DNA of 64,000 nt from Candidatus Aenigmatarchaeota archaeon (lineage in GTDB: Archaea; Aenigmatarchaeota; Aenigmatarchaeia; CG10238-14; SCSR01), in NCBI GenBank assembly GCA_038998335.1, contig JAVZHQ010000001.1, positions 480,001-544,000 on the forward strand, in the 5' to 3' direction. Shown in pieces: positions 22,164-35,750 of this stretch (its first letter is position 1; each line of letters begins with the position of its first letter). A program made the position numbers and the translations under genes. Under the pieces are notes generated by a model that did no database searches, had not been told where the DNA came from, and worked only from the letters and a program-made list of their open reading frames with translations.

Positions 22164-24674
22164 GTGAAATGGTGGACTAAAACAAGTGAAGATGTGATAA
22201 AAACTTTGAACACATCCCCCGAAGGCCTCAGCGAAGAAGTGGCAAAGGAAAGGCTAACAACCTATGGCCCAAACGATATTCCAAAGAGGATGGAAAAGTC
22301 AGCATTCAGCTTGTTTATTTCACAGTTTAAAGACCCCCTTCTACTAATGCTTTTAGCAGCAGCGATAATAGCTTACTTTACAGAAAGTGTTACAGAAACG
22401 GTCATCATAGTTTGTATACTTTTAGTGGATTCTTTGCTTGGCTTTTTTCAAGAATACAAATCTGAAATGGCACTTCGAAAACTTTGTAAATACGTAAGAT
22501 ATTGGACCAAAGTTTTAAGGAACGGGAACTTGTTGGAAATTGACACTCGAAACCTTGTGCCTGGAGACATAGTTTTGATTGAAAGTGGAGATAGAATTCC
22601 TGCTGACTTGCGCCTGATAGAGGCAGATGATTTGGAAATAGACGAATCCTTAGTTACAGGCGAAGCTTATCCAGTTCCTAAAGACACTGCTCCCATAATC
22701 GAAGAAAAAATTGAACCGCAAAGGATGAAAAACATGGCTTTCATGGGAACCTTGGTAACAAACGGAAAAGGAAAAGGTGTGGTAGTTTCTACAGGAATGG
22801 AAAGTACCTTTGGAAAGATTGCAGGCTACTTGAAATCTGAAGAGCCCGTAACAAGCTACCACAAAAACATAAGAAAGTTAAGTAAGTTCCTGATGGGAAT
22901 TGTAATAACTGGAGTAATTTTTATATTCATCTTTAATTCGATTACAGGAAAGAAAATTCTTGATTCATTTTTGTTTTCCTTAGCCTTAGCAGTTGGTATA
23001 GTTCCGGAAGCACTACCAATAGTCATAACCATAAGTCTGTCAAAAGGAGCAATTAAAATGACTAAAGTTGGAGTAATAACTAAAAAGCTTGCAGCGATCG
23101 AAGATTTGGGCAACATGGATGTTTTATGCATAGACAAAACTGGCACGCTAACTCAAAACAAAATAAAGCTGGTAGATTATCTTGATTTGGATGGAAAAAG
23201 AGATGTAGAGCTTGTGATTCTTGCATCTACAGCTTTGTCGGTGATAGAGAAAAAAGGAAAGTTCGTAGGGAATTCTATAGATATTGCGATAGGTGAATTT
23301 GCTAAAACTCTGCCGAACAAAAAATATGAAGTTGTGGATACCATACCTTTTGACTTCATGAGAAAGAGGACAAGTAGTGTTATTAAACAAGGAAAAAAGT
23401 ATTTGTTGATATGTAAAGGAGCTCCAGAGAACATAATTGCTGTCTGCACAAAGATGAAAAAGTCCGGTAGAGTTTCTAAATTGGAAAAAGATACGATTGA
23501 AAAAATGCTGGAAGAACTTTTCAAAAAAGGTTATAGGGTAATTGCAGTTGCTAAAAAAATAGTAGAGAAGAAAGACAATTATACAAAAGAGGACGAAAAA
23601 GATTTGGTTTTACTTGGTTTCTTATGCTTCACAGATCCTCCAAAAGCTGGAATTAAACAAACTATAGCTGAACTTAAAAAATTGGGAGTAGAGTTAAAAG
23701 TGCTGACGGGAGATAATGCTATAATCGCGAAAGATGTTATGAAAGAAGTTGGAATTGAAGTTAAAGGAGTTTTAAGTGGGATTGAAATCGATTCCCTGAA
23801 GGACGAAAGTCTTTGCGAAGCTGTAGAGAAAAACAATTTGTTCGTGAAGCTTACTCCAGAACAAAAAGTAAGGATAGTTCAAGCTTTGAAGAAAAATGGC
23901 CATACTGTTGGCTTTTTGGGAGATGGTGCAAATGATGCTCCAGCTTTAAGACATGCAGACGTTGGGATCTCGGTCGAAAATGGGGTTGATGTCGCTAAAG
24001 AAGCTTCTGATATAATTTTGACGAGGAAAAGTTTGAAAGTTATTTTGGATGGTATTGTGGAAGGAAGGAGAACTTTTGGCAATACAACAAAATACATACT
24101 CAACACGCTATCAGCAAATTTAGGAAACATGACAAGCTTAGCCATAGTTTCACCTTTCCTAAATTTCCTACCAATGCTACCATCCCAAATCTTGCTGACG
24201 AACTTGATAAGCGATGGACCATTGCTTTCAATTTCCACTGATGCTATTGATGAAGAAGAATTAAAAATGCCAAAACATTGGGACCTTAGTTTCATAATAA
24301 AATTCTGTGCTTTGTTTGGTTTCATTAGCTCCATTTTCGATTTCATCACGATGGGCATACTTCTCTGGTTTGGAAAAAGCGTCGAAATATTTAGAACAGG
24401 CTGGTTCCTGGAATCTGTGTTATCTGAAATATTTGTAACCTTTGCTATAAGAACAAAGAAAAGGTTTTACAAGAGCAAGCCAAGTGATGTTCTGCTTTTA
24501 GCGTCGATAATTTTCGGTTTATTAGCTTTTGTAATAATTTATTCTCCTCTAGGAGCATTTTTTGAGTTTGTTCAACTAGATATAACTTTTGTATTACTTA
24601 TAGGTTTGATTTTGCTAGCCTACTTTGCTCTAGCAGAAGTCAGTAAGTATATTATCTACAGGAAGTTTTTCTGA
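22164..24674 (+). CDS. mgtA: Magnesium-translocating P-type ATPase
   Basis: VPEALP, DKTGTLT, PFDFMRKR, KGAPE, TGDN, GDGANDAPAL, FRTGWFLES. The actuator motif is TGEA rather than TGES. Confidence 0.88.
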   Translation: MKWWTKTSEDVIKTLNTSPEGLSEEVAKERLTTYGPNDIPKRMEKSAFSLFISQFKDPLLLMLLAAAIIAYFTESVTETVIIVCILLVDSLLGFFQEYKSEMALRKLCKYVRYWTKVLRNGNLLEIDTRNLVPGDIVLIESGDRIPADLRLIEADDLEIDESLVTGEAYPVPKDTAPIIEEKIEPQRMKNMAFMGTLVTNGKGKGVVVSTGMESTFGKIAGYLKSEEPVTSYHKNIRKLSKFLMGIVITGVIFIFIFNSITGKKILDSFLFSLALAVGIVPEALPIVITISLSKGAIKMTKVGVITKKLAAIEDLGNMDVLCIDKTGTLTQNKIKLVDYLDLDGKRDVELVILASTALSVIEKKGKFVGNSIDIAIGEFAKTLPNKKYEVVDTIPFDFMRKRTSSVIKQGKKYLLICKGAPENIIAVCTKMKKSGRVSKLEKDTIEKMLEELFKKGYRVIAVAKKIVEKKDNYTKEDEKDLVLLGFLCFTDPPKAGIKQTIAELKKLGVELKVLTGDNAIIAKDVMKEVGIEVKGVLSGIEIDSLKDESLCEAVEKNNLFVKLTPEQKVRIVQALKKNGHTVGFLGDGANDAPALRHADVGISVENGVDVAKEASDIILTRKSLKVILDGIVEGRRTFGNTTKYILNTLSANLGNMTSLAIVSPFLNFLPMLPSQILLTNLISDGPLLSISTDAIDEEELKMPKHWDLSFIIKFCALFGFISSIFDFITMGILLWFGKSVEIFRTGWFLESVLSEIFVTFAIRTKKRFYKSKPSDVLLLASIIFGLLAFVIIYSPLGAFFEFVQLDITFVLLIGLILLAYFALAEVSKYIIYRKFF

Positions 24675-24695: not shown

Positions 24696-24833
24696 CGCCG
24701 GGGCTGGGATTTGAACCCAGAAGGGGCAAAGCCCCAGTAGGTTTCTCAGAATTCAAGTATCATCATTATTCAGATACCTCAGAGTTCCTCATTCACTCGA
24801 GCCTACCGCGTTACCTTGTTCCGCCACCCCGGC
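24696..24833 (-). tRNA. tRNA-Ser(CGA) with a 53-nt intron at the canonical 37/38 position (intron 24743-24795)
   Basis: Acceptor stem GCCGGGG/CCCCGGC with discriminator G, anticodon stem GTAGG/CCTAC with CT-CGA-G, long variable arm GGGGC-TTT-GCCCC, T arm CTGGG-TTCAAAT-CCCAG, and a bulge-helix-bulge at the junctions. No encoded CCA. Confidence 0.95.
24743..24795 (-). ncRNA. Putative intron-encoded box C/D guide sRNA
   Basis: Intron reads TGA-ATGAGGA(C)-ACTCTGAGGTAT-CTGA(D')-ATA-ATGATGA(C')-TACTTGAATT-CTGA(D)-GAA. Confidence 0.75.
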
Positions 24834-24858
24834 TCTAATTAAAATTACTTTACTTAAC

Positions 24859-25254
24859 TTAAAAATTGTATTCTACTAATTCTCTTAAATCTTTTTCTCC
24901 AAAGTAAACCAAATGACTTTTACAATTGCAATCAGAAGAGCCAAATTTTTTAACTAAAACTTTTGCTCCAGGCAAACTTGAAACTATTTTGTTTAGCCTG
25001 CACTCAATTCTTTTTTTGCTTTGAAACCCAACCAAATGAACAATTTTAGCACTTTTGCTAGCTAACAAGTAATCTATATGCCAAAACTTTTTCTTTTTCT
25101 TCCTTTTATGTCTTTCCACTCTAGCTTCCAGATTTTTAAGAGCAGAACCAGAATAAACATAAAAACCTTTTTTGAAATTAAAACTTCCAAGCTTCCCAAC
25201 TTTAATTCTTTCATCTTTTTCAAGTTTTATAAAGAGCAAATAAGCTCCTTTCAT
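24859..25254 (-). CDS. GIY-YIG nuclease family protein (DUF123/Uri-like)
   Basis: KGAYLL, YVYSGSA, RVERH, WHIDYLL, FGSSDCNCKSHL. Confidence 0.9.
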   Translation of the reverse strand: MKGAYLLFIKLEKDERIKVGKLGSFNFKKGFYVYSGSALKNLEARVERHKRKKKKKFWHIDYLLASKSAKIVHLVGFQSKKRIECRLNKIVSSLPGAKVLVKKFGSSDCNCKSHLVYFGEKDLRELVEYNF

Positions 25255-33453: not shown

Positions 33454-33672
33454 GTGGGAATAGTTAAAGATAACCTAGGAATAAGAAAGTTAAGGATAGC
33501 CAAAGGTAAGATTAAAGGAAAAGTTTTCAGAGATGAGAAAGGAAAAATCAACTTTGAGTTATCAGACGAGAAAAATCCCATAACTCAAGTTAACAGGCTA
33601 AACATTAAAAGTTATGAAGAATGGGAAAAAATTAAAAGCTTGGTTGACAAGTGGATAAAAAAGCTTAAGTGA
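33454..33672 (+). CDS. Small basic hypothetical protein adjoining topA
   Basis: 72 aa, GTG start, stop overlaps the in-frame GTG upstream of the topA ATG. Confidence 0.6.
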   Translation: MGIVKDNLGIRKLRIAKGKIKGKVFRDEKGKINFELSDEKNPITQVNRLNIKSYEEWEKIKSLVDKWIKKLK

Positions 33673-33677
33673 AGTTC

Positions 33678-35750
33678 ATGGGCTACACTTTAATAATCGC
33701 TGAAAAGCCAGACGCAGCAAGAAGAATAGCCGAAGCTTTAGCTGATAAAAAGCCAAAAGTCGTTAAGAAAAGAGAAGTAGAGTATTACGAATTTACAGTT
33801 AACGGAAAAAAGCATGTTTGCGTTCCTGCTGTTGGCCATCTATTTACTCTTTCTCCTTTGTCTAAAAGTAAAAAATGGAACTACCCAATTTTTTCTTATG
33901 AATGGACTCCAACTTATACAAAAAAAGGAACCGAGTGGACAAGGAAATACTTTGAGAATATTGTGGATTTAGCAAAAGGTGCTGACGAGTTTATAGATGC
34001 TGCAGATGTTGACACAGAAGGAGAAGTTTTGCTTTACAATATTTTAAGATTCATTTGTAAGGTTAAAGATGCTAAAAGAATACAATTCTCAACTTTAACA
34101 AAAGATGAACTTGTTGAGGCATACAGAAATATGTCAAACCATATTCTTTTTCCAATGCTTGAAAGCGGTTTAACAAGGCATGAGCTTGATTGGCTATGGG
34201 GAATTAACTTAACTCGAGCTCTAACTCTTGCTCTAAAAAATCATGGCGCTAAAGCTTTTGCTATTCTATCAGCAGGAAGAGTTCAAAGCCCAACTTTAAA
34301 CCTTCTTTTGGAAAGAGAAATTGAAATAAGAAATTTTAAACCAAAACCTTTCTGGCAGCTCGAGCTAAGAGCAAAAGTTGACAATCAAGAAATAGTTGCG
34401 ATGCATGAAAAGGATAAATTTTGGAAGAAAGAAGAAGTTGATAAAGTTTTGAATGACTGTAAAGGAAAGGATGCTTTGGTAAAGGATGTGAAAAAAAGAG
34501 AATATAAACAAAAACCTCCTTTTCCTTTTAATACTACTGATTTGCAAGCAGAAGCTTATGCTTGCTTTAAGTTCTCTCCCACTCAAACCCTACAAATTGC
34601 TGAATCACTTTACCAGCAAGGTTTTATTTCTTACCCAAGATCTTCAAGCCAAAAATTGCCTCCAGTAATAAATTATGAAAAAATTTTGAAAGCTTTAGCA
34701 AGTTTAAAACCTTATGAAAAGTTTGCTAAGGAATTACTAGAAAAAGAAAAACTCATTCCTAATGAAGGTCCAAAAGAAGATCCTGCACACCCAGCAATTT
34801 ATGCTACTCATGAAATTCCAGAATTAAGCAAGCTGACTCCTCAACAAAGGAAGCTTTATGATCTAATTGTGAGAAGGACCTTAGCAACTTTTGCCGAAGA
34901 AGCTTTAAGGGAAAGTATAAACGCAATTTTGGCAATAGATGATAATAAATTCATAGCTGTAGGGAAAAGAACAATAAAGCCTGGATGGACAGAAATCTAC
35001 TCTCCTTATTTGACTTTTGAAGAACAAATCCTTCCTGAGCTTAAGGTTGGACAAACCGTTAAAGTTATTAAAATCAACTTGCTTTCAAAACAAACTCAAC
35101 CCCCTCCAAGGTATACTCAAGGAAGTATAATAAAAGAACTTGAAAAAAGAAATCTCGGGACAAAAGCAACTAGGGCAGAAATTTTGCAAACACTTTATGA
35201 TAGAAAGTATATTTTTGGGAAGAGCATTCAAGTTACAAAGCTTGGGGAAGTTGTTGCTAAAACTTTGAAGGAGTTTGTTCCAAGTATAGTTAGCGAAGAA
35301 TTAACAAGACATTTTGAAGAAGAAATGGAACAGGTTTTTAATGGAAAGAAAAAAAGAGAAGAGGTTGTAGAGGAAGCAAAAGAAGTTTTAAGCAAGATTT
35401 TGGAAGAATTTAAGAGCAAGGAAGAAAGAATTGGAAAAAAATTGCTCGAAGGTTTAACTCTTTCCAGACAAGAAGAAAGAAGACTTGGTATATGCCCAAA
35501 TTGCAAAGGCGAGCTAAGAATACTTTTTTCAAGAGCTAGTGGTAAGCGTTTTGTTGGTTGTTCAAACTATCCAAAATGCAAAACAGGCTTTCCTTTGCCT
35601 TTGGTTGGACAAATAACTTCTTTGAACAAAAACTGCGAAGTTTGTGGTTTGCCTATGATTCAAGTTTGGAGGAAAGGTAAAAGACCTTTTAGAATGTGTA
35701 TTAATCCTAACTGCAAAACAAAAGAAAGTTGGAATAAAAATAAAAGCTAA
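33678..35750 (+). CDS. topA: DNA topoisomerase IA with C-terminal zinc fingers
   Basis: LIIAEKP, AVGHL, D.D.EGE (TOPRIM), SAGRVQSP, catalytic ISYPR, LGTKATR, C4 zinc ribbons. Confidence 0.95.
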   Translation: MGYTLIIAEKPDAARRIAEALADKKPKVVKKREVEYYEFTVNGKKHVCVPAVGHLFTLSPLSKSKKWNYPIFSYEWTPTYTKKGTEWTRKYFENIVDLAKGADEFIDAADVDTEGEVLLYNILRFICKVKDAKRIQFSTLTKDELVEAYRNMSNHILFPMLESGLTRHELDWLWGINLTRALTLALKNHGAKAFAILSAGRVQSPTLNLLLEREIEIRNFKPKPFWQLELRAKVDNQEIVAMHEKDKFWKKEEVDKVLNDCKGKDALVKDVKKREYKQKPPFPFNTTDLQAEAYACFKFSPTQTLQIAESLYQQGFISYPRSSSQKLPPVINYEKILKALASLKPYEKFAKELLEKEKLIPNEGPKEDPAHPAIYATHEIPELSKLTPQQRKLYDLIVRRTLATFAEEALRESINAILAIDDNKFIAVGKRTIKPGWTEIYSPYLTFEEQILPELKVGQTVKVIKINLLSKQTQPPPRYTQGSIIKELEKRNLGTKATRAEILQTLYDRKYIFGKSIQVTKLGEVVAKTLKEFVPSIVSEELTRHFEEEMEQVFNGKKKREEVVEEAKEVLSKILEEFKSKEERIGKKLLEGLTLSRQEERRLGICPNCKGELRILFSRASGKRFVGCSNYPKCKTGFPLPLVGQITSLNKNCEVCGLPMIQVWRKGKRPFRMCINPNCKTKESWNKNKS

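Follow-up and report, generated by a model that had tools for sequence, protein, structure and literature searches.

Can one and the same intron of a transfer RNA (tRNA) gene be a splicing substrate and, at the same time, a guide RNA for methylation? This question is raised by a tRNA-Ser(CGA) gene of a Candidatus Aenigmatarchaeota archaeon (assembly GCA_038998335.1, contig JAVZHQ010000001.1), which is located within a stretch of 64,000 nucleotides (nt), positions 480,001 to 544,000 of the contig, hereafter referred to as the window. Plain coordinates are counted from the first letter of the window; the genome under study is designated G000 and its contig C1, G followed by another number stands for the genome of a relative, and L followed by a number for an inspected locus. 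A sequence-only reading had proposed that the 53-nt intron of this gene parses as a complete box C/D RNA with two guides and is framed by a canonical bulge-helix-bulge (BHB) splice structure. When the elements were read back, each was found at the position that had been given for it, and the parse is exact: box C, a 12-nt guide, box D', the spacer AUA, box C', a 10-nt guide and box D, followed by GAA and exon 2. The gene and its parts are:

24696..24833, minus strand: tRNA-Ser(CGA) gene (Rfam RF00005, 42 bits; ARAGORN with introns)
24796-24833, minus strand: exon 1 of tRNA-Ser(CGA)
24696-24742, minus strand: exon 2 of tRNA-Ser(CGA)
24743..24795, minus strand: BHB intron of 53 nt at the canonical position 37/38, read here as a box C/D RNA as well
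24798..24801, minus strand: CUCG, tRNA positions 32-35, the 5' strand of the central BHB helix, which pairs with UGAG at 24745-24748
24786..24792, minus strand: box C, AUGAGGA, with one departure from RUGAUGA, at position 5
24774..24785, minus strand: D' guide ACUCUGAGGUAU, 12 nt, the conserved guide; its predicted partner is 23S ribosomal RNA (rRNA) 2732-2741 of G000
24770..24773, minus strand: box D', CUGA
24767..24769, minus strand: D'-C' spacer AUA, 3 nt, the loop of the kink-loop (K-loop)
24760..24766, minus strand: box C', AUGAUGA
24750..24759, minus strand: D guide UACUUGAAUU, 10 nt, variable among relatives
24746..24749, minus strand: box D, CUGA

The intron is very probably a real intron-borne box C/D RNA, and a probability of roughly 0.75 is assigned to the mechanism as a whole, i.e., to a box C/D guide whose formation is coupled to the splicing of the tRNA. 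The host gene itself is recognized by two routes. The tRNA model RF00005 matches 24696-24833 on the minus strand with an E value of 1.2e-7 and a 57-nt insertion within the anticodon loop, and ARAGORN, if introns are allowed, calls a tRNA-Ser(cga) with a 53-nt intron following position 37. ARAGORN without the intron option makes no call here, and Rfam at gathering threshold over the whole window gives no match to the gene. The spliced product is a class II tRNA of 85 nt, whose anticodon loop measures 7 nt and whose variable arm is long. The splice structure, read at its coordinates, is canonical as proposed: two 3-nt bulges, AGU and AAA, enclose the 4-bp central helix CUCG/UGAG, which is flanked by the anticodon stem GUAGG/CCUAC on one side and by an outer helix on the other, in which GAAU (24791-24794) pairs with AUUC (24749-24752). 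The earlier observation that box D and the start of box C lie inside these helices is borne out: the first two bases of box C sit in the outer helix, and box D contributes its C to the outer helix and its UGA to the central helix, the 3' strand of which consists of this UGA and the following G. Folding energies place the BHB-enforced structure at -13.0 kcal/mol, 1.7 kcal/mol above the minimum free energy of -14.7 kcal/mol.

The splice structure is also maintained in relatives. In an alignment of 24 distinct CGA-type sequences (alignment A1), the anticodon stem is paired in 100% of the cells, with changes on both sides in all five pairs. The CUC/GAG pairs of the central helix are unbroken in 24 of 24 sequences; two of them are invariant and the third shows a single change, C-G becoming U-G. 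Only 6 of the 24, the genus of G000 among them, have the fourth central pair (G-U); the relatives therefore use relaxed splice motifs, in line with the broad-specificity EndA that passages of PMC5829648 report from DPANN lineages.

The motifs are short and the genome is AT-rich; the box pattern was counted in the real genome (1,009,365 bases) and in ten shuffled ones. The strict four-box pattern has one match in the genome, the tRNA-Ser(CGA) intron, and 0, 0, 0, 0, 1, 0, 0, 1, 0 and 0 matches in the shuffled genomes. A relaxed box scan of the whole genome yields two matches, the introns of tRNA-Ser(CGA) and tRNA-Ser(UGA), compared with 0, 0, 0, 1, 0, 0, 0, 0, 2 and 2 in shuffled genomes. Those two strict matches in shuffled genomes are what an ordinary tRNA intron with an accidental resemblance to C/D RNAs has in its favour, together with the base composition; however, such an accident would have to place the sole real match within a 53-nt intron, repeat the same architecture in 28 genomes of four families and be paralleled in the introns of tRNA-Ser(UGA) and tRNA-Ser(GGA), and it is hardly credible. 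The C/D likeness of the intron is not chance. A genome-wide search with the Rfam model snoPyro_CD (RF00095) likewise placed the two tRNA-Ser introns on top, at 22.5 and 21.9 bits (E values of 0.0099 and 0.014), both short of the gathering score of 45 bits and followed by a third-best match with an E value of 1.9; snoPyro_CD is a generic Pyrococcus C/D model foreign to this lineage, and odder guides, none of which was detected with it, may exist in the genome. The intron aligns end to end with a dozen archaeal C/D families, always below the gathering threshold (best sR12, 25.2 bits), and belongs to no curated Rfam C/D family.

Conservation of the boxes among orthologous introns had been suggested as a check on the sequence-only reading. 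BLAST searches against 41 genomes of the order revealed full-length orthologues with 84-98% identity in G001, G002, G004, G012 and G015, and matches of 72-76% over the whole or nearly the whole query to further intron-bearing tRNA-Ser genes. Of 371 genomes in the phylum, 32 contain a pattern composed of the D' guide, box D' and box C', and 29 of these 32 belong to the order (118 genomes). The matches in G019 and, outside the order, in G053, G254 and G341 have neither boxes nor a tRNA and were rejected as chance; after removal of G019, the architecture recurs in 28 of the 118 genomes, 16 of which were read individually, and it is conserved across four families. A scan of all GTDB species, one genome each, with a degenerate pattern (C box, guide core, D' and C') returned 42 loci: 23 tRNA-Ser(CGA) genes, one orphan hairpin, seven free-standing archaeal loci resembling small RNAs (sRNAs) and 11 bacterial loci. 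The latter are without box architecture, and about six were expected by chance according to an estimate; the 24 CGA-type loci are titled Candidatus Aenigmatarchaeota/Aenigmarchaeota (15) or 'uncultured archaeon' (9).

In alignment A1, the boxes proved to be conserved indeed. Box D' reads CUGA in 23 of 24 sequences, box C' reads RUGAUGA in 22 of 24, and the UGA core and the final A of box C are invariant; the D'-C' spacer measures 3 nt in 19 sequences and the C-D' spacer, i.e., the D' guide, 12 nt in 21. Identity per position amounts to 67-100% over the final 8 nt of the D' guide, which occur in seven variants, in contrast to 38-83% identity and 17 variants for the final 8 nt of the D guide, and the C'-D spacer is 12 nt long in only half of the sequences (12/24). 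The conservation of D', C' and the D' guide, set against the variability of the D guide and box D, indicates that the D'/C' half is constrained and that the D half drifts. On these sequence patterns, the D guide looks vestigial in the genus of G000.

The proteins that such an RNA would need are encoded in G000, the assembly of which consists of 9 contigs with 33% G+C and 90% completeness. Fibrillarin (282 bits) and Nop5 (230 bits), whose absence would have spoken against a guide RNA, are encoded by adjacent genes, and L7Ae is present as well (109 bits); all three exceed the Pfam cut-offs. The splicing endonuclease EndA (95 bits, an open frame of 193 amino acids) and the ligase RtcB (547 bits) are also encoded. 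The RtcB match (G000:C1:120751-122073, plus strand) holds two internal TAA codons, which could reflect an insertion, a split gene or an artefact. With the ARAGORN call, the conserved boxes and the encoded machinery, the proposal of a tRNA-Ser-hosted guide RNA is supported.

The following mechanism is proposed. The gene would be transcribed, probably from its own TATA-like element, and the anticodon arm and the intron ends, judged from their complementarity, would fold into the canonical BHB. EndA would then cut both bulges, and RtcB would join the exons and probably circularise the intron, as suggested by the tRNA-Trp introns of Haloferax and Sulfolobus. Pairing within the BHB occupies box D and the first bases of box C, so that the C/D kink-turn (K-turn) is expected to form only after the BHB has been opened or cut. 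A terminal stem is missing from the linear intron (5' UGA, 3' GAA); joining of the two ends would convert C/D into a second K-loop, which would resemble the internal K-loop D'-AUA-C'. L7Ae, Nop5 and fibrillarin would assemble on the excised RNA, and the D' guide is predicted to pair with UACCUCGGGG of the 23S rRNA and to direct 2'-O-methylation, by the fifth-nucleotide rule, to the C that corresponds to Escherichia coli 2441.

Several observations count against this proposal. The Rfam scores of the intron range from 22 to 25 bits, compared with gathering thresholds of 38-45 bits (sR12 38, snoPyro_CD 45); since these families are species-specific, the low scores bear on family membership, not on RNA class. 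The guide spacer of archaeal C/D RNAs is typically about 12 nt long, and the C'-D spacer in G000 measures only 10 nt. In addition, the 3' part of the D' guide can form 7 bp with the end of box C' and the start of the D guide of G000, which would compete with target binding. Box D reads CUGA in only 6 of the 24 sequences of alignment A1, the others having CAGA (10), AAGA (5), CGGA (2) or GAGA (1), and its GA doubles as a pairing partner in the BHB, so that the splice structure alone could conserve it. Finally, among 22 sequencing runs found, the contigs of 4 were examined, and the one true RNA run among these, a metatranscriptome, yielded a single unspliced contig of 269 nt with a depth of 4, which contains neither a splice joint nor a circular junction and reaches 117 nt upstream of the gene. 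This contig may be DNA or read-through and says nothing either way on splicing.

The next question is what the conserved guide might act on. The D' guide of G000 forms 10 contiguous pairs, two of them G-U, with 23S rRNA 2732-2741, and the fifth position is paired. Of 23 guide variants, 21 score best among rRNA sites at this large subunit (LSU) site, and the variant of L009 matches it with 10 Watson-Crick pairs. Among 24 LSU loci from relatives, the site reads CCUC in 16 and CCCC in 5, and a small insertion splits it in the remaining 3. Two genomes, G028 and G033, combine an LSU of the CCCC type with the cassette and carry GGGG in the guide; the CCUC genomes carry GAGG there, a compensatory change that speaks for the pairing. 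The fifth-nucleotide position is the C at LSU 2735 of G000, three nucleotides before the GGGG run; in an alignment to an E. coli record, it corresponds to E. coli 23S 2441, 10 nt upstream of the peptidyl-transferase position A2451. The numbering of this record is 3 short of the textbook numbering and was corrected via A2451.

The pairing is not significant when taken alone, and part of the evidence on the target points the other way. With pairing scores of 14-20, no guide surpasses the best of its 40 shuffled versions (20-23; means 15.2-17.3), guide position 1 is mismatched in the G000 duplex, which contains the two G-U pairs, the L007 and L096 variants are internally mismatched at the LSU site and score best elsewhere, and the covariation of guide and target is a single event in one genus. 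Seven free-standing sRNA loci of other phyla (L069, L081, L087, L091, L092, L104 and L107) share the guide core, but their guides fit LSU 1273-1281 or small subunit (SSU) 726-734 as well or better. The possibility that these sRNAs are orthologues was rejected, as two of the three scored guides (L069, L091/L107 and L081) fit other sites better; the guide of L081 alone fits the LSU 2731 site best. The LSU sequences of the organisms that carry the free-standing sRNAs were not found in five metagenome-assembled genomes, and none of these sRNAs reaches an Rfam family. Taken together, the sequence comparisons put the odds somewhat above even that the conserved D' guide targets the 23S rRNA by the peptidyl-transferase loop, at the C of E. 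coli position 2441. Apart from this, insertions are numerous around the peptidyl-transferase region in the LSU of G000 (C1:412614-415875) and in the LSU loci L045, L046, L056-L058, L061, L064 and L065. Those of about 31-33 nt lie inside the predicted D' guide target in three relatives, and one of about 45 nt is located some 30 nt downstream of it in G000.

It was also considered whether the guides of the tRNA-Ser(CGA) intron act on tRNAs, like the tRNA-Trp intron, e.g., whether the D guide directs Cm56 in the T-loop and thereby replaces aTrm56. The tRNA Cm56 methyltransferase aTrm56 (PF01994) was indeed not found in the 90%-complete genome, and the D guide forms 9 bp (two G-U) with GGUUCAAGU of one tRNA-like gene (C1:241490), with the fifth nucleotide on C56. 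However, most T-loops read UUCAAAU and allow only seven pairs, two G-U among them, and the guide base opposite C56 varies within the genus (UACUUAAAUU, UACUUUAAUU and UGUUGGGCUU); as this base is not conserved, Cm56 was dropped as the main function. Self-targeting of the host was rejected, because neither guide matches the exons of tRNA-Ser: the listed matches of both guides (score of at least 13) do not include the host tRNA-Ser and contain no convincing match to another tRNA, and the anticodon stem changes among relatives while the guide stays constant. Action on tRNAs is thus very improbable. For the D guide, no convincing target was found in the rRNAs or tRNAs of G000. The variant ACGCUCUUGAUU, which looks ancestral, occurs as an exact 9-mer only in coding-looking DNA of five genomes. 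An 11-bp pairing of ACGCUCUUGAUU with a variable LSU hairpin (2468-2478) was rejected as a target, being present in only 3 of 10 LSU loci of relatives (L045, L046 and L056); among the three genomes concerned only G015 carries the guide ACGCUCUUGAUU, and a fourth 11-bp match (L049) lies in unrelated sequence.

The tRNA-Ser(CGA) intron is not the only one of its kind in the genome. A second C/D intron lies outside the window:

G000:C1:281225-281370, minus strand: tRNA-Ser(UGA) gene with a 59-nt intron that reads as a second C/D RNA

This intron parses as AUGAUAA, AAUGGCUUGACU, CUGA, CUA, AUGAUGA, GUCGGAGGUGAG and UUGA. Its D' guide is predicted to pair with GUCAAGCCA of the 16S rRNA, the equivalent of E. 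coli 1405-1413, which would place A1408 at the fifth nucleotide; the predicted partner of its D guide is UCACCUCC at the 3' end of the 16S rRNA, where C1535 would take this position. In G027, a G in the guide of the sister cassette pairs with a C in the 16S rRNA where G000 has A-U. The sister D' guide together with its D' box was found in 53 of the 118 genomes of the order (a control pattern gave one match). Inspection of 31 of these loci revealed 20 introns of tRNA-Ser(UGA), 10 insertions in 16S rRNA genes and one unrelated sequence; L153, L154, L155 and L160 were assigned to tRNA-Ser(UGA) by reading, and ARAGORN calls three of them tRNA-Ile and makes no call for the fourth. The 16S-hosted cassettes (L138, L164-L167, L170-L172, L176 and L177) are located near the 3' end of the 16S rRNA, between both predicted targets, and an 8-bp helix flanks the one at L138 (G024:C4, about 66700-66870). 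The tRNA-hosted and the 16S-hosted copies alike retain UUGA as box D, which in the latter is not constrained by anticodon pairing. The sister cassette strengthens the assignment of the CGA intron to the box C/D class. A third pair of guides with C/D architecture is found in introns of 54-58 nt within tRNA-Ser(GGA) genes (L013 in G026 and L021 in G034).

A CGA-type unit can even be found without its tRNA. G005, which belongs to the same genus as G000, contains an orphan BHB hairpin (L010 = L095; G005:C1, about 33650-33711), i.e., a CGA-type unit without D, variable and T arms. Its BHB is perfect (CCGAG / CUCA / AGA / GAAU ... AUUC / UGAG / AGA / CUCGG), and it precedes, by about 60 nt, a different tRNA-Ser(CGA) gene, which has a small non-canonical intron elsewhere. 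The fact that the cassette and its splice signals were kept after loss of the tRNA body argues for selection on the RNA in its own right and for its dependence on BHB processing.

These findings bear on a further explanation, according to which the K-turn and K-loop motifs serve only as L7Ae sites that aid the folding of the pre-tRNA or the timing of splicing, with no methylation involved. The degenerate state of box D and the D guide in many relatives would agree with this, as would the fact that the guide-target pairing is not significant when taken alone. Moreover, a minimal D'-like/C'-like motif, (C/U)UGA-N4-7-RAUGA, recurs in five other tRNA genes and in the 16S gene of G000; it has seven matches in 6.9 kb of tRNA and rRNA genes, including both C/D introns, compared with about 0.9 expected at the rate seen genome-wide. 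The carriers listed are tRNA genes at C1:371540, 405024, 556995, 569471, 663523 and 785187 and the 16S gene at C1:408403, the similar strings at C1:663523 and C1:785187 having been seen by eye only. A role restricted to L7Ae binding, however, leaves unexplained why the 12-nt spacer and the final 8 nt of the D' guide have been preserved across four families, why a change in the guide matches a change in the 23S rRNA, why the G005 unit was kept without a tRNA body, and why the sister cassette sits between two complementary 16S sites. This explanation is improbable, and a guide RNA released by tRNA splicing accounts better for the conserved guide. The motif (C/U)UGA-N4-7-RAUGA may be an L7Ae-binding K-loop.

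Guide RNAs borne by tRNA introns are not without precedent. The statements that C/D guides reside in euryarchaeal pre-tRNA-Trp introns and that excised archaeal introns can circularise, both given as established in the sequence-only reading, agree with passages of PMC7994747 and PMC11408192 for the former and of PMC3326292 for the latter, which describes tRNA-Trp introns with C/D boxes as excised, circular and stable in Haloferax volcanii and Sulfolobus solfataricus. The pre-tRNA-Trp intron guides (H. volcanii, Sulfolobus, Pyrococcus sR50) likewise consist of a complete C/D'/C'/D arrangement in a BHB intron that is released by EndA (PMC3326292, PMC7994747 and PMC11408192). The present intron differs from them in its host, which is tRNA-Ser instead of tRNA-Trp, and in its length, 53 nt compared with 105 nt in Haloferax and 65 nt in Sulfolobus. 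The guides in tRNA-Trp introns act on C34 and U39 of the very tRNA that hosts them, whereas the conserved guide of tRNA-Ser(CGA) fits the 23S rRNA and has no match in its host.

A second precedent is the 66-nt intron within the elongator tRNA-Met of Nanoarchaeum equitans, another DPANN archaeon with a reduced genome, which gives rise to a stable box C/D intron RNA; in its text on this case, PMC3491384 names tRNA-Trp as the only one known before. In the N. equitans RNA, box C is mutated and a GC hairpin is present, and the part of PMC3491384 that describes it assigns no target. In contrast, the tRNA-Ser(CGA) intron possesses all four boxes and a conserved guide, belongs to an order-wide family and resides in another host tRNA. 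With free-standing sRNAs (sR12, snoPyro_CD) it shares the box order, the C-D' spacing of 12 nt and the 3-nt loop of the C'/D' K-loop, but it lacks a terminal stem and a promoter of its own, and its ends are the splice sites. No intron-borne C/D case in a tRNA-Ser or in Aenigmarchaeota was found in the literature searched, in which the term 'C/D' was unsearchable and supplements were not covered. Compared with the tRNA-Trp/tRNA-Met type, what is new is the tRNA-Ser host, the predicted rRNA target and a family that switches hosts.

Intron-borne C/D guides have so far been treated as a self-modifying curiosity of tRNA-Trp plus one tRNA-Met case. The archaeon studied here, which has a reduced genome, appears to keep just two C/D guides, both in tRNA-Ser introns and both with predicted targets in functional centres of the rRNA, which hints at a minimal set of rRNA methylations that is kept as genomes are reduced. 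Comparison of the relatives shows the same cassettes moving between tRNA introns, an rRNA intron and a bare splice hairpin. One may tentatively go further and suppose that C/D guides for both ribosomal functional centres are made only by the tRNA-splicing machinery in this order, as portable, host-switching BHB cassettes that form circular particles with two K-loops, and that they constitute the entire C/D guide set of G000; this wider proposal is doubtful as a whole. If true, the processing of tRNA and rRNA would be coupled to methylation close to the peptidyl-transferase centre and within the decoding centre. How archaeal C/D sRNAs gain their ends and circularise, and whether they move as BHB-intron elements, can now be tested.

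The neighbourhood of the tRNA-Ser(CGA) gene comprises:

22164-24674, plus strand: gene of a P-type cation ATPase, convergent with the tRNA gene; its end is 22 nt from the tRNA 3' end
24859-25254, minus strand: gene of a DUF123 protein on the same strand as the tRNA gene, its stop codon 26 nt upstream of the tRNA
24858..24865, minus strand: TATA-like sequence UUUUUAAG, 25-32 nt upstream of the tRNA 5' end, a putative promoter element

Ordinary free-standing C/D sRNAs were also seen in relatives within the order (L126 and L127 in G026 and G030, L128-L132 and L139). One of them starts 7 nt past the 3' end of a tRNA, and two form a tandem pair.

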